From the NCBI RefSeq assembly GCF_024502345.1, contig NZ_JALDNN010000001.1: a stretch of DNA of 64,000 bases; one strand, given 5' to 3'. Shown one piece after another: positions 7,837-39,717 of this stretch (position 1 is its first letter; every line of letters starts with the position of its first letter). Under the pieces are notes generated by a model. The model searched no databases, had not been told where the DNA came from, and was given only the letters and a program-made list of their open reading frames with translations. The translations under genes and the position numbers were made by a program. Origin of the DNA: Escherichia coli. Lineage in GTDB: Bacteria; Pseudomonadota; Gammaproteobacteria; Enterobacterales; Enterobacteriaceae.

Positions 7837-8258
7837 TACTATTCCTCAAAAAACCAAAAGCGCGTTATTTACCCAGAAAGGCAACGCGTTAACTCGCAGA
7901 AAGAAAAATACAGTTCGCTATCCTACAAATTATCATTCGTCGATGTAAGGAATAGTTATGAATACTGGCGTCTCAAGGCACATAAACACAAAAAAAGATT
8001 AATATTCTACTGTTTTATTTTGACGCGGGTTGAAAGAGGCAGAATTAAAACCTCGTAAATTGAAATATATATTCATGTGGCGAATGTATTTTAGGTAAAT
8101 AATATATATTATTTATTTGACGATTTATAGCAACTCAATGTTACCCTCTCGTATAAATACACATTAGATGATAGATTAACCTTCGCTATTTTCTCACCCT
8201 GTGTCGAATATATTTATTTCCTGAATAATTAATCATGGCAAAAAGAACCAAAGCCGAA

Positions 8259-8267
8259 GCTCTGAAG
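8259..8267. repeat. Left 9-bp target-site duplication GCTCTGAAG of the IS903-group insertion
   Basis: Identical 9-mer immediately flanks both IS ends (8259-8267 and 9325-9333). Confidence 0.85.
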
Positions 8268-9324
8268 GGCTTTGTTGAATAAATCGAACTTTTGCTGAGT
8301 TGAAGGATCAGATCACGTATCTTCCCGACAACGCAGACCGTTCCGTGGCAAAGCAAAAGTTCAAAATCACCAACTGGCCCACCTACAATAAAGCCCTCAT
8401 CAACCGTGGCTCCATAACTTTCTGGCTGGATGATGAAGCTATTCAGGCCTGGTATGAGTCAGCAACACCTTCTTCACGAGGCAGACCTCAGCGCTATTCT
8501 GACCTTGCCATCACGACTGTGCTGGTCATTAAACGCGTATTCAGGCTGACCCTGCGCGCTGCGCAGGGCTTTATTGATTCCATTTTTTCTCTGATGAACG
8601 TTCCGCTACGCTGCCCGGATTACAGCTGTGTCAGCAGGCGGGCAAAGTCGGTTAATGTCAGTTTCAAAACGCCCACCCGGGGTGAAATCGCACACCTGGT
8701 AATTGATTCCACCGGGCTGAAGGTCTTCGGTGAAGGCGAGTGGAAAGTCAAAAAGCATGGCCAGGAACGCCGCCGTATCTGGCGTAAGCTGCATCTCGCC
8801 GTTGACAGTAAAACACATGAAATCATCTGCGCTGACCTGTCGCTGAACAACGTTACGGACTCAGAGGCCTTCCCCGGGTTAATCCGGCAAACCCACCGGA
8901 AAATCAGGTCAGCCGCCGCCGATGGCGCTTACGATACCCGGCTATGTCACGATGAACTGCGGCGTAAGAAAATCAGCGCGCTTATCCCTCCCCGAAAAGG
9001 TGCGGGTTACTGGCCCGGTGAATATGCAGACCGTAACCGTGCAGTGGCTAATCAGCGAATGACCGGGAGTAATGCGCGGTGGAAATGGACAACAGATTAC
9101 AACCGTCGCTCGATAGCGGAAACGGCGATGTACCGGGTAAAACAGCTGTTCGGGGGTTCACTGACACTGCGTGACTACGATGGTCAGGTTGCAGAGGCTA
9201 TGGCCCTGGTACGAGCGCTGAACAAAATGACGAAAGCAGGTATGCCTGAAAGCGTGCGTATTGCCTGAAAACACAACCCGCTACGGGGGAGACTTACCCG
9301 AAATCTGATTTATTCAACAAAGCC
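8268..9324 (+). mobile_element. IS903-group (IS5 family) insertion sequence, 1057 bp
   Basis: 18-bp terminal inverted repeats GGCTTTGTTGAATAAATC (8268-8285) and reverse complement (9307-9324); single transposase ORF; 9-bp direct target duplication; length and repeat sizes match IS903/IS102-type elements. Confidence 0.85.
8300..9268 (+). CDS. IS903-group DDE transposase
   Basis: 322-aa ORF (TTG start in track) MKDQITYLPDNADRSVAKQKFKITNWPTYNKALINRGSITFWLDDEAIQAWY...; recognised as IS5-family/IS903-group transposase. Confidence 0.85.
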   Translation: MKDQITYLPDNADRSVAKQKFKITNWPTYNKALINRGSITFWLDDEAIQAWYESATPSSRGRPQRYSDLAITTVLVIKRVFRLTLRAAQGFIDSIFSLMNVPLRCPDYSCVSRRAKSVNVSFKTPTRGEIAHLVIDSTGLKVFGEGEWKVKKHGQERRRIWRKLHLAVDSKTHEIICADLSLNNVTDSEAFPGLIRQTHRKIRSAAADGAYDTRLCHDELRRKKISALIPPRKGAGYWPGEYADRNRAVANQRMTGSNARWKWTTDYNRRSIAETAMYRVKQLFGGSLTLRDYDGQVAEAMALVRALNKMTKAGMPESVRIA

Positions 9325-9333
9325 GCTCTGAAG
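9325..9333. repeat. Right 9-bp target-site duplication GCTCTGAAG
   Basis: Direct repeat of 8259-8267 flanking the IS. Confidence 0.85.
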
Positions 9334-9965
9334 ACCCGGCAAGAACTGATTGAAACTGCCATCGCCCAGTTTGCGCAACATGGCGTAAGCAAGACGACGC
9401 TCAACGACATTGCCGATGCCGCTAACGTTACGCGTGGCGCTATCTACTGGCACTTCGAAAACAAGACTCAACTGTTTAATGAGATGTGGTTGCAACAGCC
9501 TTCATTGCGGGAGTTAATCCAGGAACACTTGACGGCTGGATTAGAGCATGACCCGTTTCAACAATTGCGTGAAAAATTGATTGTCGGCTTGCAATATATT
9601 GCCAAAATTCCCCGCCAGCAGGCGTTGCTGAAAATCTTATATCACAAATGTGAATTTAATGATGAGATGCTGGCCGAGGGAGTGATACGCGAAAAGATGG
9701 GCTTTAATCCGCAGACTCTCCGCGAAGTATTGCAGGCGTGTCAGCAACAAGGTTGTGTAGCAAATAACCTCGATTTAGATGTTGTGATGATTATTATTGA
9801 TGGTGCCTTCAGCGGAATTGTTCAAAACTGGTTAATGAATATGGCGGGTTATGATCTTTATAAACAAACCCCCGCTCTGGTCGATAACGTATTAAGAATG
9901 TTCATGCCAGATGAAAACATAACGAAATTAATTCATCAAACGAATGAATTAAGTGTCATGTAAAT

Positions 9966-10145
9966 TCACATTCTGTCCTGAAAATTCAGTTCGTCACAGT
10001 TAACCAGTTTTAGTGGATTAACTGAGTTCATATTACGGCATTTGTCTGTTTCTGTTGTCAGCAGTTCAATCCACTGCATCAGTAAAGTATCAAACAGAAA
10101 AACGAAGACAGCGAAAACGACGAGCCACCAATACTTGCGAATCAT
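9966..10145 (-). CDS. yhdU: Small membrane protein YhdU
   Basis: ORF containing MIRKYWWLVVFAVFVFLFDTLLMQWIELL...; conserved position between acrS and yhdJ. Confidence 0.75.
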   Translation of the reverse strand: MIRKYWWLVVFAVFVFLFDTLLMQWIELLTTETDKCRNMNSVNPLKLVNCDELNFQDRM

Positions 10146-10228
10146 TACCTGAGCCTGTGCATGTTTAACCAAGTCTGGCAGGAAATATACACGAAATGAA
10201 TAATCTGAAAACCAGGCTTACACTTCCT

Positions 10229-11113
10229 TTACTTTGCAATGAGATCGGGGTCAACTTCGCTTAACCGGCTTCGTTTTGACAGGTTGCCGGTCTTTCTTTT
10301 TTTCACTTTCGCCAGTTCTTCCGCAGAGTAATGCGACGCGACATCCAGCCGTCGAAGCCCCATTTTGATGTACTCGCTGTTGATCTCAATACCAATGAAT
10401 TTTCGCCCGCTGGAGACGGCTACGGCACCGGTAGTAAAGCTACCGGCAAACGGGTCGAGAACGATATCGCCTGGGTTGGAAGAGGCGAGAATAATGCGTT
10501 TCAGTAAGGCTTCCGGTTTTTGCGTCGGGTGGTTTTCATATTCATCCATCAAATAACGCACGCGCGGAAAATCCCAGACGTTACCCGGTACTTTTTGATG
10601 ATTGTAAGGCTGTGGAGGATTTTTGCGATAATCGATCAACGCGCGCTGCGATCCGGTTTTGGCTTCTACCAGAATAGCATCACCGTTGAACGTGTAGTTC
10701 TTTGCGTCTTTCACCATCATCAGGATGGGTTCATACATGGAACCGTAGTGTTTTTTCGCCTGCACTCCAGAACTGTCATATGACCAGACGATGCGACTTT
10801 TGATGGTAAAAAGCTTGCGGCACTGGAGATCGATAAAGGGCATGTTTTCCGTACTGTTCATGATGTACATGCTGCCCTGCTTTTTCAGAACGCGGTGGCA
10901 CTCTGCAATCACTTCAAACAGCCAGTCGATAAACAGATCTTCTTTCCAGGCTTCGATCAGACCATCAAAATTTTTACCGATGTTATACGGTGGGTCGGCA
11001 AAGATCAGATCGACGCTTTCAGTAGGTAGCTTTTTAAGTTCGGCAAGGGCATCACCGTGAATAATGGTCTTAGCTTCATTACCAAACCGGGTCGGTTCAC
11101 ATCCTGTTCTCAT
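10229..11113 (-). CDS. yhdJ: Orphan N6-adenine DNA methyltransferase YhdJ
   Basis: 296-aa ORF with methyltransferase motifs FADPPY and DPFAGSFTTG; likely start at MRTGCEP. Confidence 0.9.
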   Translation of the reverse strand: MRTGCEPTRFGNEAKTIIHGDALAELKKLPTESVDLIFADPPYNIGKNFDGLIEAWKEDLFIDWLFEVIAECHRVLKKQGSMYIMNSTENMPFIDLQCRKLFTIKSRIVWSYDSSGVQAKKHYGSMYEPILMMVKDAKNYTFNGDAILVEAKTGSQRALIDYRKNPPQPYNHQKVPGNVWDFPRVRYLMDEYENHPTQKPEALLKRIILASSNPGDIVLDPFAGSFTTGAVAVSSGRKFIGIEINSEYIKMGLRRLDVASHYSAEELAKVKKRKTGNLSKRSRLSEVDPDLIAK

Positions 11114-11140
11114 GGTCACTCCCTTTGTGACACCTATAAA

Positions 11141-11180
11141 AAAGGCGCTTCCCCATGCCGAGTAGCGCCTTTTTAATCAA
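11141..11180 (-). terminator. Bidirectional rho-independent terminator (ancestral fis terminator)
   Basis: aaaaaaggcgcttccccatgccgagtagcgccttttt: GC stem flanked by A6 and T5 runs, immediately downstream of the left copy of the fis 3'-end repeat. Confidence 0.6.
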
Positions 11181-11198
11181 GCATTTAGCTAACCTGAA

Positions 11199-11215
11199 TT
11201 AGTTCATGCCGTATT
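11199..11215. repeat. Left copy of 17-bp direct repeat TTAGTTCATGCCGTATT (duplicate of fis 3' terminus; att-like)
   Basis: Exact 17/17 identity with 13069-13085, which is the true 3' end of fis including its stop codon. Confidence 0.9.
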
Positions 11216-11382
11216 GTAAAATACAGAGTCATTATACGTAATTTATTATCACTCTAGATAATTTGTATTCATCATAAATAATTGATGCGGAAAGAGATAT
11301 TTATTTTTTATTGGCTCGCATTGTATCATCAGTTATCAGTTACTCCCTGCATACAGTTGTCAAAAAGGTTGTCATTAACTCT

Positions 11383-11481
11383 ATGGCCGAAAATAAACTC
11401 TCAGATGTTCAATTGCGTGCGTTAACCCGCAAAGTCATCGAAAAACCTTTTGATGTTGCTGACGGTGGCCAAGTTGGGTGA
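11383..11481 (+). pseudogene. Putative integrase N-terminal (arm-binding domain) remnant, 32 codons then stop
   Basis: MAENKLSDVQLRALTRKVIEKPFDVADGGQVG* resembles the KLTD..R..KP....DGGG N-terminal motif of tyrosine integrases; followed by a hairpin plus T7 run at about 11570-11600. Confidence 0.35.
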
Positions 11482-11610
11482 AAACCTGCTATGCAGCTAC
11501 CGCATAAGGGTAGTGGATTCCGCTGAAATCTTGCCGTTCATCCGATCATAACATCACAACAGTTGTTGCCCATTACCCTGGCGAATGCCGGGGCTTTTTT
11601 TATTTTCAAA

Positions 11611-11923
11611 GTGACGCCTAGGTGTCATTAATTTATAAGGTGTCATGGTAGGTGTCATTGTTCTCAAGCCATAACCCGCAAGGGTTGCGACATTACTAAT
11701 GACACCTATGACACCTATGACAGCATTTTTAAAGAAAATAACGACCACTGTAATAATGTAACAGTGGTCGTTATACTTTATAGAAATGGGTGTCATGGTG
11801 TCACAGGTGTCATTCATTACAGTATCTTGTTTGTATTTTTCTTTAATAATCAGCGTGTTTCCCGCTATGACACCTAATGACACCTTTCCAACATAACGCC
11901 GTCATGGTGACATTAGGTGTCAT
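11611..11923. repeat. Iteron-like array: at least 11 copies of the 9-mer AGGTGTCAT / ATGACACCT in both orientations
   Basis: Forward copies at 11620, 11638, 11650, 11789, 11797 (variant), 11805, 11915; reverse copies at 11699, 11708, 11867, 11877; arranged as two similar modules (three forward then two reverse) about 169 bp apart. Confidence 0.8.
11739..11773. repeat. Perfect hairpin/palindrome with 13-bp arms (TAACGACCACTGT / ACAGTGGTCGTTA) and 9-nt AT-rich loop, central to the 9-mer array
   Basis: Read directly from sequence. Confidence 0.8.
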
Positions 11924-12274
11924 CGCCATCTGCTGCCAAAAAAGTCAAGGTACTTCCGAGGGGGGTACAGCCTGCGGGGGCATTGGTCCCGCGTAATTCG
12001 CGTTGTGCGTGCCCCTACAAAACTCACTTTATGATTACGTCAAGTAAATCAATCATTTATGTGAATCCTATCAAAGCACTGGCACCATACGTGCGCGATT
12101 GCAAAATAAAGCGAACACGTTTTACACACGCTGAATTGTAAAGATGTGTAAATATCGATTACGCCGGATTATGCCGGGTTATTTGCAAGTATTCAGGGTT
12201 ATAAGTTACTGATTTTACATTAAAAAGCTCACATTGTGGCTATTGTGTTCGGTCTGGTTACTGTATATCTTTAA

Positions 12275-12991
12275 GTCATTCCAGGCGATTTAGCTGGCCT
12301 GGCGCTGGCAGGTTATCAGATTTACCGCCATTGGGCTGGTGTGAAGGCTTTCTTTGGCGGAGTGGGTGAAGGCATCAAATCCGGGCTGGAACCGCTTAGC
12401 GACGCTCTGAGCCGCCTTTATGAACGCATGGGGCCGCTGAAACCTGTCATTGATGGTGTGGGTGCTGCGGTTAAGACGGTTTTCAACTGGTTCACGTCAT
12501 TGACCGAGCCGGTCAAGTACAGTGGCGAGGAACTGGATAAGGCCGGTAAAATGGGGATGACGTTCGGTAAGACCCTGGCGGCTGGCATCGAGCTTGTGAC
12601 CGCACCGATCACGTTCCTGATTGATAAGATTCTGTGGGTGTCTGACAACATCGGCAACCTGACCAACAAGGCACTGGAGTTTAAAAACGCCGTGTCTGAT
12701 GTTGCTGGTGGTGCGTGGCAGAAAACCAAAGATTTCTTTACCGCACCATTCCGCGACGATGTACAGCAGCCAGCAGCAACCACTGCCTCTGGTGCTGCCC
12801 TGCCGTCACCTGCACTGGCCAACCGCTCTGGTGGCACTACGGTGCATAGCAACGACCAGTACCACATCAGCGTGAAGGCAGAACCTGGTATGAATGAAGA
12901 TGCATTAGCCCGGAAGGTGATACAGCAACTACGACAGCAACAAGCAGTAAGGCAGCGAAGCATGATGATAGATGGCGCGCAAACACCATAA
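12275..12991 (+). pseudogene. 5'-truncated phage tail tape-measure-like protein, C-terminal fragment
   Basis: Open frame from 12275 (stop at 12272 upstream) encodes ...LAGLALAGYQIYRHWAGVKAFFGGVGEGIKSGLEPLSDALSRLYERMGPLKPVIDGVGAAVKTVFNWF...VHSNDQYHISVKAEPGMNEDALARKVIQQLRQQQ; Gly/Ala-rich segments and C-terminal tail typical of tape-measure proteins; no plausible start or RBS for a full gene. Confidence 0.4.
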
Positions 12992-13068
12992 GGGTTGTCA
13001 GTACGGTTGCAACAAAAAGTAAAGGGACTGAAATAGCCCCTTTAATTTCATGCCGTTACAGCTTGACT

Positions 13069-13085
13069 TTAGTTCATGCCGTATT
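13069..13085. repeat. Right copy of 17-bp direct repeat TTAGTTCATGCCGTATT (native fis 3' end)
   Basis: Encodes the last codons ...YGMN* of fis on the minus strand. Confidence 0.9.
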
Positions 13086-13365
13086 TTTTCAATTTTTTAC
13101 GCAGCGTACCACGGTTGATGCCCATCATCAGCGCAGCACGGGTCTGGTTACCACGGGTGTATTGCATCACCATGTCCAACAGGGGCTGTTCTACTTCAGC
13201 CAGTACCAGCTCATAGAGGTCATTCACATCCTGACCATTCAGTTGAGCAAAATAGTTCTTCAGTGCCTGTTTAACCGAGTCACGCAGGGGTTTTTGGGTT
13301 ACCTGATCCTGAGAGTTAACGGTAGAAACGGTCAGTACGTCAGAATTTACGCGTTGTTCGAACAT
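13069..13365 (-). CDS. fis: Nucleoid-associated protein Fis
   Basis: 98-aa [101 protein letters not shown], recognised as Fis. Confidence 0.97.
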
Positions 13366-13390
13366 AGTTCTGTCAGCTCTTTATTTCTGT

Positions 13391-14356
13391 TTACGCAAAA
13401 TTTTCGAAGTATGCCTCCAACGCCTCCAGCTGTTCGCTGGCATCCTCAATGGCGTTGAATGTGCGCCGAAACTGGTCATTGGGAGCGTGTTCCTGGAGAT
13501 ACCAGGAAACGTGTTTACGTGCAATTCGGTACCCTTTTGCCGGACCATAAAAGTCATGCAGTTCCCGAACGTGCGCGCAAAGCAAGCGCTTAACCTCTGC
13601 CAAAGGCAGCGGGGGCAGCAACTCCCCAGTGTCCAGATAATGCTGGATTTCCCGAAAGATCCAGGGTCTTCCCTGAGCTGCGCGGCCTATCATCAGGGCA
13701 TCCGCCCCTGTATAGTCGAGCACAGCTCTGGCTTTAAGCGGGTCAGTAATGTCGCCATTCGCGATAACCGGAATGGAAACTTTCTGCTTAACTGCCTGAA
13801 TACTGTCGTACTCAGCTTCTCCATTGAACAAACAGGCGCGTGTACGGCCATGAATGGTCAGAGCCTGAATGCCACAGTCTTCAGCCAGTTGGGCAATCTC
13901 TTCGCAGTTACGGTGTTCCGGCGCCCAGCCAGTGCGAATCTTCAGGGTAACAGGAACGTCCACTGCATTGACGACCTCGGTAAGGATCGATTTAACGACT
14001 TCCGGGTACTGCAAGAGGGCTGAACCTGCGAGCTTGCGATTCACTTTTTTAGCCGGGCAACCCATATTGATATCAATAATCTGGGCACCGCTTTCCACGT
14101 TAATACGTGCTGCATCTGCCATTTCTTTCGGATCGCTACCGGCAATTTGCACGGTGCGAATACCGGGTTCATCAATGTGCACCATCCGTAAACGAGATTT
14201 ATCGCTTTCCCAAACTTGTGGGTTAGAAGACATCATCTCGGATACTGTCAATCCGGCTCCCATCTCGTAGCACAACGTCCGAAAAGGTCTGTCTGTAATG
14301 CCAGCCATGGGCGCTGCGATCAGGCGATTTCTGAGCTGATATTGTCCGATGCGCAT
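13391..14356 (-). CDS. dusB: tRNA-dihydrouridine synthase B
   Basis: 321-aa ORF immediately upstream of fis (dusB-fis operon); TIM-barrel flavoprotein sequence. Confidence 0.93.
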
Positions 14357-14684
14357 GTGTTAAGAAATGACCATACTGTGACTGCAAGGCGGCGTATATT
14401 ACGCATTTTTCGCACGAGATGAAAGGCCAAACTTTGACCAATCCTCTGAGATGGATCAAAGAATTGCATTTAAAATGAGCGTAGCGCGATAATTACTCAT
14501 AAAAATCATCATATTAGAAAATAGTGACTAAAATTCACACTCAAAGAAATTTGAGTAAGTTCTCAATTTTTCTTTATGAATGAAAATTTTGGCACGCAAA
14601 TTTGCGTAAATAATCAGCAAGTTTGCGTGCCTTTTGTGACGTCGCTCGCATTTTGTTGGCTGATGCGAACTTACCTGAAGATGA

Positions 14685-15566
14685 TTAATTCTTACGACCA
14701 GTAATGCGGCACCACTCTTCTTTTTCCACGACCGGGTCCAGAGCGAAGCTGTCGGCATAGGCTTCGCAAACGCTCTCCGCCTGGCTTGCCAGAATACCAG
14801 AAAGGCCCAGTAAGCCGCCTGAAACTGGCAGGACGCTAATTAACGGTGCCAGTTCACGTAACGGGCCTGCGAGGATGTTAGCGACCACCACGTCGGCTTT
14901 CATCGCTTCTGGCTGATCTTTCGGTAAGTAGAGTTCCAGACGCTCAGAAACACCATTACGTTCGGCGTTGTCGCGGCTGGCCTGAATCGCCTGCGGATCG
15001 ATATCAATACCAATGGCTTTTGCTGCACCAAGCTTCAGCGCTGCGATAGCCAGAATGCCGGAACCGCAGCCAAAGTCGATCACCGTTTTACCGGTTAAAT
15101 CGAGGCTGTCGAGCCATTGCAGGCACAAAGATGTGGTTGGATGGGTACCCGTACCAAACGCCAGCCCTGGGTCTAACATCACGTTGACGGCGTTTTCGTC
15201 CGGCACATCACGCCAGCTTGGGCAGATCCACAGTCGTTCACCAAAGCGCATCGGGTGGAAATTATCCATCCATTCGCGCTCCCAGTCTTTATCTTCCAGT
15301 TGTTCGATTTTATGCGCGAAGCCCGCACCGAGCAGCGGATGGTTTTCCAGAATCGCCACCACGTCGTTCATGTCGGTTTCAGCGTCGAACAGACCAATCA
15401 CATCGGTGTCGCCCCACAGGCGCGTTTCGCCCGGCAGCGGCTCAAATACTGGCGTATCGTGGGTATCCTGAAAAGTGATAGAAACGGCACCCGCTTCCAT
15501 CAGCGCATCGCTAAGATCTTCCGCGTTCGCGCCGGTGGTGTTCAGTTTCAGTTGGATCCAAGGCAT
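14685..15566 (-). CDS. prmA: Ribosomal protein L11 methyltransferase
   Basis: 293-aa ORF with SAM-binding motif [13 protein letters not shown]. Confidence 0.93.
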
Positions 15567-34836: not shown

Positions 34837-35018
34837 TATTCACTCTGACTTAAAAGTGATTTAGATCACATAATATAGATAACAGCATAACAGTTACGCT
34901 AATATATTAAATATCAATCTACAGCAATGTTGCTCTCGCCCGGCTTTCCATGCCCTTCTCTGCGGCGACAGATGCTGAAAATAATAACGCCTGCTCTCTC
35001 TATACAACCAAGGTCAAC

Positions 35019-35222
35019 ATGAGTCTGTTTCCCGTTATCGTGGTGTTTGGGCTGTCCTTCCCACCGATATTTTTTGAATTGCTTTTATCACTGGCGATTT
35101 TCTGGCTGGTGCGCCGGGTACTTGTGCCAACAGGTATCTACGACTTTGTCTGGCATCCGGCGTTGTTCAACACCGCGCTCTATTGCTGCTTGTTTTATTT
35201 GATATCGCGACTGTTCGTTTGA
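35019..35222 (+). CDS. aaeX: Small membrane protein AaeX
   Basis: [67 protein letters not shown]. Confidence 0.85.
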
Positions 35223-35229
35223 GGTTGAA

Positions 35230-36162
35230 GTGAAAACACTAATAAGAAAATTCTCCCGTACGGCCATCACGGTCGTATTAGTCATTCTGGCCTTCATCGC
35301 AATTTTTAATGCCTGGGTCTATTACACCGAATCCCCCTGGACGCGTGACGCGCGCTTTAGCGCTGACGTCGTTGCGATCGCGCCGGACGTTTCTGGACTC
35401 ATTACCCAGGTGAATGTTCATGATAACCAGCTGGTGAAAAAAGGACAGATACTGTTCACCATCGACCAGCCGCGCTATCAAAAGGCGCTTGAGGAAGCGC
35501 AAGCCGATGTTGCTTATTATCAGGTACTGGCACAGGAGAAACGCCAGGAGGCCGGACGTCGTAACCGTCTCGGTGTGCAGGCGATGTCTCGCGAAGAGAT
35601 CGACCAGGCTAACAACGTACTACAAACGGTTCTGCATCAGTTAGCGAAAGCGCAGGCGACCCGCGATCTGGCAAAACTGGATCTTGAACGCACGGTGATC
35701 CGCGCGCCAGCAGATGGCTGGGTGACCAACCTCAACGTCTATACCGGTGAGTTTATTACTCGAGGATCAACGGCGGTTGCGCTGGTGAAACAGAACTCCT
35801 TCTATGTACTGGCCTATATGGAAGAAACTAAGCTGGAAGGGGTGCGTCCGGGGTATCGTGCAGAGATCACGCCGCTTGGCAGTAACAAAGTGCTGAAAGG
35901 GACTGTTGATAGTGTTGCCGCTGGGGTCACCAACGCCAGCAGCACGCGTGACGACAAAGGGATGGCGACCATCGACTCTAACCTTGAATGGGTGCGTTTG
36001 GCGCAACGTGTTCCGGTTCGTATTCGTCTCGACAACCAGCAAGAGAACATCTGGCCTGCGGGCACCACTGCTACAGTGGTGGTCACTGGCAAACAAGATC
36101 GCGACGAAAGCCAGGATTCGTTCTTCCGTAAAATGGCCCATCGCCTGCGTGAGTTTGGTTAA
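35230..36162 (+). CDS. aaeA: p-Hydroxybenzoic acid efflux pump adaptor subunit AaeA
   Basis: 310-aa ORF, HlyD-like membrane fusion protein, GTG start. Confidence 0.92.
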
Positions 36163-36167
36163 TCACG

Positions 36168-38135
36168 ATGGGTATTTTCTCCATTGCTAACCAACATATT
36201 CGCTTTGCGGTAAAACTGGCGACCGCCATTGTACTGGCGCTGTTTGTTGGCTTTCACTTCCAGCTGGAAACGCCACGCTGGGCGGTACTGACAGCGGCGA
36301 TTGTTGCCGCCGGTCCGGCCTTTGCTGCGGGAGGTGAACCGTATTCTGGCGCTATTCGCTATCGTGGCTTTTTGCGCATCATCGGCACATTTATTGGCTG
36401 TATTGCCGGACTGGTGATCATCATTGCGATGATCCGCGCACCATTATTGATGATTCTGGTGTGCTGTATCTGGGCTGGTTTTTGTACCTGGATATCCTCG
36501 CTGGTACGAATAGAAAACTCGTACGCGTGGGGGCTGGCCGGTTATACCGCGCTGATCATTGTGATCACCATTCAGCCGGAACCATTGCTTACGCCGCAGT
36601 TTGCCGTCGAACGTTGTAGCGAGATCGTTATCGGTATTGTGTGTGCGATTATGGCGGATTTGCTCTTTTCTCCGCGATCGATCAAACAAGAAGTGGCTCG
36701 AGAGCTGGAAAGTTTGCTGGTCGCGCAATATCAATTAATGCAACTCTGTATCAAGCATGGCGATGGTGAAGTTGTCGATAAAGCCTGGGGCGACCTGGTG
36801 CGACGCACCACGGCGCTACAAGGCATGCGCAGCAACCTGAATATGGAATCTTCCCGCTGGGCGCGGGCCAATCGACGTTTAAAAGCGATCAATACGCTAT
36901 CGCTGACGCTGATTACCCAATCCTGCGAAACTTATCTTATTCAGAATACGCGCCCGGAATTGATCACTGATACTTTCCGCGAATTTTTTGACACGCCGGT
37001 AGAAACCGCGCAGGACGTCCACAAGCAGCTCAAACGCCTGCGGAGAGTTATCGCCTGGACCGGGGAACGGGAAACGCCTGTCACCATTTATAGCTGGGTC
37101 GCGGCGGCAACGCGTTATCAGCTTCTCAAGCGCGGCGTTATCAGTAACACAAAAATCAACGCCACCGAAGAAGAGATCCTGCAAGGCGAACCGGAAGTAA
37201 AAGTAGAGTCAGCCGAACGTCATCATGCAATGGTTAACTTCTGGCGAACCACACTTTCCTGCATTCTGGGCACGCTTTTCTGGCTGTGGACGGGCTGGAC
37301 TTCCGGCAGTGGTGCAATGGTGATGATTGCGGTCGTGACGTCACTGGCAATGCGTTTGCCGAATCCACGCATGGTGGCGATCGACTTCATCTATGGGACG
37401 CTGGCCGCGCTGCCGTTAGGGCTGCTCTACTTTTTGGTGATTATCCCTAATACCCAACAGAGCATGTTGCTGCTGTGTATTAGCCTGGCAGTGCTGGGAT
37501 TCTTCCTCGGTATAGAAGTACAGAAACGGCGACTGGGCTCGATGGGGGCACTGGCCAGCACCATAAATATTATCGTGCTGGATAACCCGATGACTTTCCA
37601 TTTCAGTCAGTTTCTCGACAGCGCATTAGGGCAAATCGTCGGCTGTGTGCTCGCGTTCACCGTTATTTTGCTGGTGCGGGATAAATCGCGCGACAGGACC
37701 GGACGTGTACTGCTTAATCAGTTTGTTTCTGCCGCTGTTTCCGCGATGACTACCAATGTGGCACGTCGTAAAGAGAACCACCTCCCGGCACTTTATCAGC
37801 AGCTGTTTTTGCTGATGAATAAGTTCCCAGGGGATTTGCCGAAATTTCGCCTGGCGCTGACGATGATTATCGCGCACCAGCGCCTGCGTGATGCGCCGAT
37901 CCCGGTTAACGAGGATTTATCGGCGTTTCACCGACAAATGCGCCGCACAGCAGACCATGTGATATCTGCCCGTAGCGATGATAAACGTCGTCGGTACTTT
38001 GGCCAGTTGCTGGAAGAACTGGAAATCTACCAGGAAAAGCTACGCATCTGGCAAGCGCCACCGCAGGTGACGGAACCGGTTCATCGGCTGGCGGGGATGC
38101 TCCATAAGTATCAACATGCGTTGACCGATAGTTAG
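36168..38135 (+). CDS. aaeB: p-Hydroxybenzoic acid efflux pump subunit AaeB
   Basis: 655-aa membrane ORF following aaeA. Confidence 0.92.
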
Positions 38136-39182: not shown

Positions 39183-39656
<474 letters not shown>

Positions 39657-39682
39657 TCACCCGATATGGTGGTTGATACAAC

Positions 39683-39717
39683 ATTATTGTGCATACAGAT
39701 GAATTTTTATGCAAACA
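39683..39717 (-). promoter_or_regulatory. Candidate ARG boxes (ArgR autoregulatory operator) upstream of argR
   Basis: Reverse strand reads TTTGCATAAAAATTCATCTGTATGCACAATAATGT, matching the TNTGAAT-4(A/T)-ATTCANW consensus. Confidence 0.5.

Follow-up and report, generated by a model that had tools for sequence, protein, structure and literature searches.

A probable orphaned replication origin in a decayed phage-inducible chromosomal island at the fis locus of Escherichia coli

A cluster of short repeats lying between yhdJ and fis in a 64,000-nt stretch of Escherichia coli DNA (contig NZ_JALDNN010000001.1; the whole stretch analysed is referred to as the window) is most probably the replication origin of a fis-integrating phage-inducible chromosomal island (PICI), left here as an orphaned relic. 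A probability of about 0.85 is placed on this reading, which was reached by comparative genomics and by analogy. It draws on the position and architecture of the array, its co-occurrence with a replication gene (rep) in intact relatives of the island, the exchange of array and rep as a cassette, the co-variation of the repeats with the C-terminal domain of Rep, the homology of Rep to Rep1 of the staphylococcal island SaPI1, and the conservation of the repeats among strains. What was an unexplained repeat cluster can now be annotated as the probable relic of a satellite origin, beside a relic cos site and bounded by intact att sites.

The window contains nine exact copies of the 9-mer AGGTGTCAT, each inside 11620-11923 (0.27 expected in the whole window), and none of 100 whole-window shuffles reached this number. 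When the 313-bp segment itself was shuffled 2,000 times with its own dinucleotide composition kept, no 9-mer of any kind exceeded four copies, so the motif density remarked on in the initial annotation does lie beyond random expectation. Allowing up to two mismatches to AGGTGTCAT, 14 sites were located within 11611-11923, nine exact and five degenerate; the earlier figure of at least eleven copies in about 310 bp is thus right once degenerate copies are counted and wrong for exact ones. In a literature search with the motif string, the ten papers listed of 391 concerned unrelated primer- or guide-type sequences. The elements of the array are as follows:

11620, 11638, 11650, 11788, 11796, 11805, 11905 and 11915, plus strand: forward AGGTGTCAT-type sites, at most two mismatches
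11611, 11699, 11708, 11717, 11867 and 11877, minus strand: reverse AGGTGTCAT-type sites, at most two mismatches
11611-11725, no strand: left iteron module, with a degenerate reverse site at 11611, three forward AGGTGTCAT sites, a spacer, reverse sites at 11699 and 11708 and a degenerate site at 11717
11724-11788, no strand: central AT-rich zone with hairpin, 30% GC, candidate melting site
11788-11923, no strand: right iteron module, with forward sites at 11788, 11796 and 11805, a spacer at 11814-11866, reverse sites at 11867 and 11877 and forward sites at 11905 and 11915
11576-11603, plus strand: intrinsic terminator closing the replication operon, with a 7-bp stem (6 G-C pairs), a 4-nt loop and a T-run

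With degenerate copies in lower case, the order is r(11611) F(11620) F(11638) F(11650), spacer, R(11699) R(11708) r(11717) in the left part and AT-rich zone, f(11788) f(11796) F(11805), AT-rich spacer, R(11867) R(11877) f(11905) F(11915) in the right part, the step between neighbouring sites being 8-12 bp except for a single step of 18 bp. The array thus resolves, as first described, into two modules of three forward and two reverse sites, at an offset of 168-169 bp (about 169 bp had been given) and with the AT-rich zone and hairpin in between. The spacer of the left module (11659-11698) contains a small GC hairpin that is polymorphic among strains. The central hairpin is real, but its arms, given earlier as 13 bp, are a perfect 14 bp (11738-11751 and 11761-11774) around a 9-nt loop, with an imperfect extension to 11724-11788; as single-stranded DNA it has a dG of -16.8 kcal/mol (z = -7.2 versus shuffles). 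The array segment is 39% GC with stretches of 30-32%, and the least stable 40-bp windows of the region, starting at 11812 (lowest) and 11748 (second), both fall between repeat sets. An inverted repeat of other sequence occupies the same place in the sibling island L005, and more distant arrays have none. The terminator upstream of the array is invariant in six strains except for the length of its T-run. A search of 11100-13100 for Rfam RNA families gave sub-threshold matches to plant and animal microRNA-precursor models, which were driven by the long inverted repeats and were rejected.

Across six strains, 15 positions of the array are variable, and one of these, a degenerate ninth base, lies inside an iteron. 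About six variants would be expected within iterons (binomial P ~0.005, from six sequences in which some substitutions may share a single recombination event). Natural variation in these sequences therefore avoids the repeats, which indicates selective conservation of the iterons. The array contains no DnaA box, IHF consensus, GATC or oriC-type 13-mer, and an origin initiated by the host was rejected for this reason; absence of DnaA boxes and IHF consensus sites is as expected of a self-loading initiator.

The surroundings of the array are an Escherichia-type chromosome, in the order acrF-acrE-acrS-yhdU-yhdJ, remnant, fis-dusB-prmA. Within the same stretch, a 1,057-bp copy of IS903B (8268-9324, 99.6-99.8% identical to annotated IS903B), flanked by a 9-bp target duplication (8259-8267 and 9325-9333), splits acrS 33 nt from its start and so disrupts the gene for the repressor of the adjoining acrEF efflux operon. 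The array sits in a 1.9-kb PICI remnant at the 3' end of fis, composed of the following features in addition to those above:

11199-11213, minus strand: att identity block TACGGCATGAACTAA on the yhdJ side, an exact match to the fis-PICI block (PMC10111431)
11383-11469, plus strand: 5' stub of int, 87 nt, ending at deletion junction 1
11466-11551, plus strand: 3' fragment of a 74-aa ORF, which when intact (L001 14862-15086) lies between rep and the array
11939-12011, plus strand: cos-like site of Jilinvirus type, starting 16 bp past the array
12293-12991, plus strand: 3' fragment of a tape-measure-like gene, following deletion junction 2 (12291-12292)
13069-13083, minus strand: att identity block TACGGCATGAACTAA, an exact copy forming the 3' end of fis (13069-13365, minus strand)

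The 15-nt block TACGGCATGAACTAA has two matches in the window against 0.13 expected, and both att blocks are intact; some 3,500 fis PICIs are reported to share this identity block (PMC10111431). The history of the remnant was read by alignment to an intact island (record L001). Window 9325-11469 corresponds to L001 9123-11267, where int starts at 11181; L001 11268-15000 is gone from the window; window 11466-12292 corresponds to L001 15001-15827 at 99.8% identity; and from 12291 onward the window follows L001 from 19738 onward. Deletion 1, whose junction at 11466-11469 is a 4-bp microhomology, begins after the first 87 nt of int and stops midway through the 74-aa ORF. Deletion 2 begins about 370 bp beyond the array and spares the final 700 bp of the tape-measure-like gene. 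Together the two deletions took out int, alpA, rep and most late genes, and the surviving 827 bp between them hold the terminator, the array, the cos-like site and an untranslated stretch. Three direct TAYGCCGGRTTAT-like 13-mers at 12160-12202, spaced by 10 and 20 bp, lie in the untranslated stretch upstream of a deleted 294-aa gene and may serve the island late operon as an operator or promoter element.

As int is reduced to 87 nt and the unidirectional int, alpA and pri of a PICI are missing, the window holds a remnant and not an island; it keeps four cis sites (two att blocks, the putative ori and cos). The suggestion that no gene for a cognate protein is left and that the array may be a relic was borne out: tblastn found no Rep homologue in the 64-kb window, and mapping to the intact island places rep within a deletion. 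With rep deleted, the origin would be orphaned and inert unless a matching Rep were supplied in trans; the array is a sequence-intact orphan relic, and a functional replicon of rep plus ori is not present in the window. The possibility that the remnant is a spreading mobile mini-element found no support. The deletion-1 junction had no match in any of 5,426 complete E. coli genomes, in a metagenome collection or in species-representative genomes, and the remnant is therefore treated as simple decay.

The intact island, about 9 kb between yhdJ and fis, was present in 47 of the 5,426 complete E. coli genomes. Its genes are unidirectional and in L001 run int, an AlpA-type HTH protein gene, a 93-aa ORF, rep (13164-14852) for a 562-aa VapE-domain Rep, the 74-aa ORF and the array; the 294-aa ORF, several small ORFs and a gene for a 762-aa tape-measure-like protein follow downstream. 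NCBIfam holds no family for Rep or for the 74-aa, 93-aa and 294-aa products. The array was found in 47 of the 5,426 genomes and the helicase/C-terminal part of rep likewise in 47, and the two sets of genomes are identical. In intact relatives about 300 bp separate the rep stop from the first iteron, by way of the 74-aa ORF and the terminator, and array-rep offset and strand were alike in all four records checked.

Array and rep also move together. Homology between L001 and its syntenic sibling L005 extends as far as rep nucleotide 346 and returns at L001 15461 (window 11926), the last iteron ending at window 11923 (L001 15458); the remainder of rep and the array have been swapped between the two islands as a block. 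In place of AGGTGTCAT, the L005 array has seven copies of ACTCGCCACCAC together with reverse degenerate copies and a central inverted repeat, followed by the same cos core. Other Rep types have arrays of similar layout at the equivalent position, with 12 copies of CGGGATA (FFF RRR RR FF RR) beside a DUF927-protein Rep and five copies of AAGTGCG beside a RepA-family helicase. The relation between Rep and repeat in further records, with Rep identities given to the L001 type, is as follows:

L103 (Enterobacter): Rep 93% identical, C-terminal helix identical, repeat AGGTGTCAT
L100 (Pantoea): Rep 79%, C-terminal helix identical, repeat AGGTGTCA(T/C)
L102: Rep 64%, C-terminal helix similar, core GGTGTCA kept
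L031: Rep 45%, C-terminal helix retaining CGxILRK, core GGTGTCA kept
L101 (K. michiganensis): Rep 62%, C-terminal helix divergent, repeat AGGGTCCA in nine copies

Five fis islands were compared, and identities to L001 were tabulated separately for islands with the same and with a different iteron. The Rep helicase domain is 87-98% identical in the former and 39-59% in the latter, and the Rep C-terminal domain 91-98% versus 33-35%; the corresponding ranges are 59-99% and 56-58% for Int and 64-100% and 66-67% for AlpA. Iteron type does not track Int, AlpA, the 93-aa ORF, the Rep N-terminal domain or the downstream 294-aa gene. The comparison indicates that the iteron is specific to the Rep allele and follows the Rep helicase and C-terminal domains. 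In every fis island with the GGTGTCA core the 74-aa ORF is part of the exchanged cassette (97%, 81% and 49% identity), and islands with other repeats lack it; its product could be a binder or co-factor, although distant loci that share the GGTGTCA core have arrays without the ORF.

An unbiased scan of viral-contig DNA for three tandem GGTGTCA cores found 85 stretches. Of these, 76 were discarded as having one orientation and no Rep; they are unrelated tandem repeats, many in giant-virus bins. A match in L042 was also discarded, its repeats lying inside a 1150-aa ORF. Mixed-orientation non-coding arrays occurred only directly downstream of primase/helicase ORFs, and in L031, L045 and L027 the array starts 9-12 nt past the rep stop. 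Two further records (L009 9713-10017 and L088 7544-7848) carry a mixed-orientation (G)GGTGTCAT array around an AT-rich centre, 85 nt downstream of a 701-aa primase-like ORF (phrog_6088) with no detectable similarity to the VapE-type Rep. The core is accordingly not exclusive to one protein family, and these cases may reflect either convergent evolution of one core or the shuffling of a DNA-binding domain.

The Rep of the intact islands (WP_021530714.1) has 562 aa, with a VapE-like Pfam domain and a C-terminal domain at about residues 470-562. Its sole PDB relative by sequence is 7PDS (E = 2e-16), the DNA complex of SaPI1 Rep1, a staphylococcal island initiator-helicase (PMC9371898). An AlphaFold model built from 21 homologues (mean pLDDT 74) likewise has 7PDS as its best structural match (E = 5e-18 over about 450 residues). 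In this model, residues 475-542 form a helix-strand-helix-helix-strand-strand arrangement (pLDDT about 81-84), by which the C-terminus is predicted to be a winged helix; specificity groups of Rep differ in its long third helix (513-527, KSQATQCGNILRKLT). The N-terminal 150 aa or so are PICI-specific, with 66% identity to the RepA-family helicase and 60% to the DUF927 protein. By sequence and predicted fold Rep is a homologue of SaPI1 Rep1, and it is probably a self-loading initiator-helicase of the SF3/VapE type.

In the origins of SaPIs and Gram-negative PICIs, two opposed iteron sets flank an AT-rich region directly downstream of rep (PMC6092414; PMC9371898), and SaPI Reps read 5-6-bp iterons with a winged-helix domain and melt and load without ATP or DnaA (PMC9371898). 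[quoted passage not shown] By analogy with SaPI Rep, the winged helix would bind the 9-bp repeats, and convergent repeat sets would nucleate hexamers either side of the AT-rich stretches at 11724-11788 and 11814-11866. The DNA would then melt at these stretches and Rep would load itself as helicase without DnaA. Binding of Rep to the iterons, melting and firing of the origin are read across from the staphylococcal case. The initial annotation had listed replication-origin iterons among its options, and the co-occurrence with Rep, the cassette exchange and the C-terminal co-variation now support that option over the others.

Four other accounts of the repeats were weighed. The first takes them for cosB-like packaging sites, bound by a small terminase or packaging-redirection protein and acting with the adjoining cos. 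Only 16 bp separate the end of the array from the cos segment shared with phages, and in lambda terminase-binding repeats flank cosN (PMC6092414), a point counted for this account. The phages that share the cos segment, on the other hand, lack AGGTGTCAT, and homology to them stops at 11939; L005 has the same cos core with entirely different repeats; and the presence of terS in islands does not track repeat type. The small-terminase gene of L005 lies in an insertion (8654-9133) that is not in L001 (17047-17274) despite the cos core common to both, so packaging modules vary independently of the replication cassette. Packaging sites are very unlikely on this evidence.

Slightly harder still to credit is an account in which the repeats are AlpA operators or integrase arm-type sites that control excision or transcription of the downstream operon. 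The array does lie between two operons of the intact island and contains weak sigma-70-like matches, and operators and arm sites, too, typically consist of short repeats clustered in both orientations. Against this, the Pantoea island with the same repeat has an Int (59%) and AlpA (64%) no closer than those of different-repeat islands (56-58% and 66-67%). The array of intact islands stands about 4 kb away from one att block and about 5 kb from the second, and in L031, L045 and L027 the same core begins 9-12 nt after the rep stop. Iteron type being independent of Int and AlpA, the earlier option of repressor or integrase sites is not supported.

A plasmid-style partition centromere or incompatibility locus, the remaining option of the initial annotation, deserves next to no weight: centromeres of parS/parC type also have dense short repeats in mixed orientation, but no ParA/ParB/ParR-type (or parM/parR) genes are annotated or detected in the intact islands examined, the repeats co-vary with a helicase cassette, and PICIs reportedly have no plasmid state or segregation genes (PMC6092414). 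Just as remote is the idea that the segment is protein-coding and its repeats reflect a repetitive peptide, the relevant feature being:

11554-11883, minus strand: 109-aa ORF over the array, called by PGAP as a hypothetical protein in most of the 47 related genomes

This call is the point in favour of coding; however, the ORF has an internal in-frame stop, with no other change, in strain JML285, which is otherwise 99.7% identical, it spans the terminator of the upstream operon, sibling islands have no homologous ORF, and a single repeated peptide could not be encoded by repeats that run both ways. The stop and the terminator overlap make the ORF probably a spurious gene call, and the description of the segment as AT-rich and non-coding stands.

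With the array read as a satellite origin, the neighbouring cos-like site and the late genes point to the phages on which the island may have depended. The segment 11939-12011 matches, at 98.6% identity, the non-coding interval that separates the lysis genes from terS in the Jilinvirus myophages ep3, ECO1230-10 and HeidiAbel_Bas97. For ECOO78 and Arya, both ends of the genome record fall within this site and overlap by 17 nt, TGCGGGGGCATTGGTCC (window 11973-11989), which on the simplest reading is probably the cohesive-end core. The product of the intact tape-measure-like gene (L001 18150-20438; 762 aa, phrog_28) matches Jilinvirus tape measure proteins along its full length at 42-43% identity, and its identity to the tape measures of Pseudomonas phages PPpW-3 and Persinger is 48%. 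The 9-kb satellite thus carries a tape measure homologue of full length, and the window keeps the 3' third of the gene; published work on Tai tail interference was considered for a link and has no bearing on this gene.

The replication proteins are alike as well. Rep residues 159-556 are 65% identical to the Arya and ep3 primases, and the C-terminal domain 57-60% (the loci compared with L001 rep were L098, Arya, 35005-37305 and L099, ep3, 8135-10444); the Toprim/primase N-terminus of the phage protein is replaced in the island Rep by the domain of about 150 aa common to unrelated PICI Reps. Helper phages carrying the same array were considered and rejected, as Arya and ep3 contain no copy of AGGTGTCAT and GGTGTCA is not clustered in them. 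Jilinvirus has an array of its own, in which GGTGAC(C/T/A)A recurs about 12 times in mixed orientation around an AT-rich centre, and which is possibly the phage origin and was located as follows:

Arya (L098) 39404-39700: Jilinvirus array, intergenic, 2-3 kb downstream of the primase gene
ep3 (L099) 13185-13450: Jilinvirus array, intergenic, 2-3 kb downstream of the primase gene

The island repeat GGTGTCAT and the phage intergenic repeat GGTGACNA differ at the fifth core position, and the predicted recognition helices are KSQATQCGNILRKLT in the island Rep and KSQATNCSNVLRKLT in the phage primase. Taken together, the cos site, the tape measure, the likeness to the primase and the phage array suggest Jilinvirus-type phages as the helpers, and a common ancestry of the rep-ori cassettes of satellite and helper. 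No paper linking Jilinvirus and satellites was found in the literature searched. A phage primase able to recognise the island repeats could fire the relic origin in trans, beside a cos cleavable by the same phage, but this outcome is considered improbable. Alternatively, the one-base shift may keep satellite and helper origins orthogonal.

The kind of origin described here is already well known, and the helper-phage connection is the part most worth following. The island family offers a natural series for how SF3 initiator-helicases read their origins, in that a constant backbone has had the Rep C-terminal helix and the iteron swapped together. The side observations point to Jilinvirus phages in two roles, as helpers of a satellite widespread among enterobacteria and as the source from which its replication module evolved; if true, the link bears on whether satellites build orthogonal origins from the machinery of their helpers.

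Iteron origins of plasmids such as pSC101, R6K, P1 and F consist of tandem repeats bound by a plasmid-encoded initiator beside an AT-rich unwinding element. Plasmid iterons are 17-22 bp long and mostly in one orientation, and winged-helix initiators of the RepA type recruit DnaA and DnaB. The array differs from an origin of the plasmid RepA/pi class in its 9-bp repeats, their two orientations, the absence of a DnaA box and the VapE-type helicase encoded beside it in intact islands. Satellite P4 resembles the island in that the C-terminal DNA-binding domain of its primase-helicase (alpha) recognises short repeated octamers at its own origin and, like the island, it carries its helper's cos site; it differs in gene content and organisation, in repeat sequence and in requiring a second cis site, crr.

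With SaPI1 Rep1, SaPIbov1 and PriRep5 (PMC9371898) the island shares Rep homology and a predicted C-terminal winged helix, and with SaPI origins (PMC9371898) the placement of 6-12 or more short iterons downstream of rep and at least two opposed iterons on each side of an AT-rich centre. The iterons are 9 bp here versus 5-6 bp in SaPIs, there are 14 sites and two AT-rich stretches, the host is Gram-negative, and the PICI-specific N-terminal domain of about 150 aa sets the island Rep apart from SaPI Reps.

The fis PICIs surveyed by Mageeney et al. 2023 (PMC10111431) have the same TACGGCATGAACTAA ends, one of them the 3' end of fis, the same position between fis and yhdJ, and likewise a phage late gene, here tape-measure-like, captured at the fis-proximal end; the present element is a 1.9-kb decayed remnant without int, alpA and pri. 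That survey did not characterise origins, and it mentions 2-3-kb components in tandem arrays at fis (PMC10111431). No description of this Rep allele or of the AGGTGTCAT iteron was found in the literature searched. Among the closest described origins are those of EcCICFT073-type PICIs (Fillol-Salom et al. 2018, PMC6092414), which share the Rep-allele-specific iterons, an island-borne helper cos site and unidirectional int, alpA and rep with the island family; the element in the window differs from these in its integration at fis, in a cos site of Jilinvirus type rather than of lambda or phi80 type, and in the deletion of its Rep.
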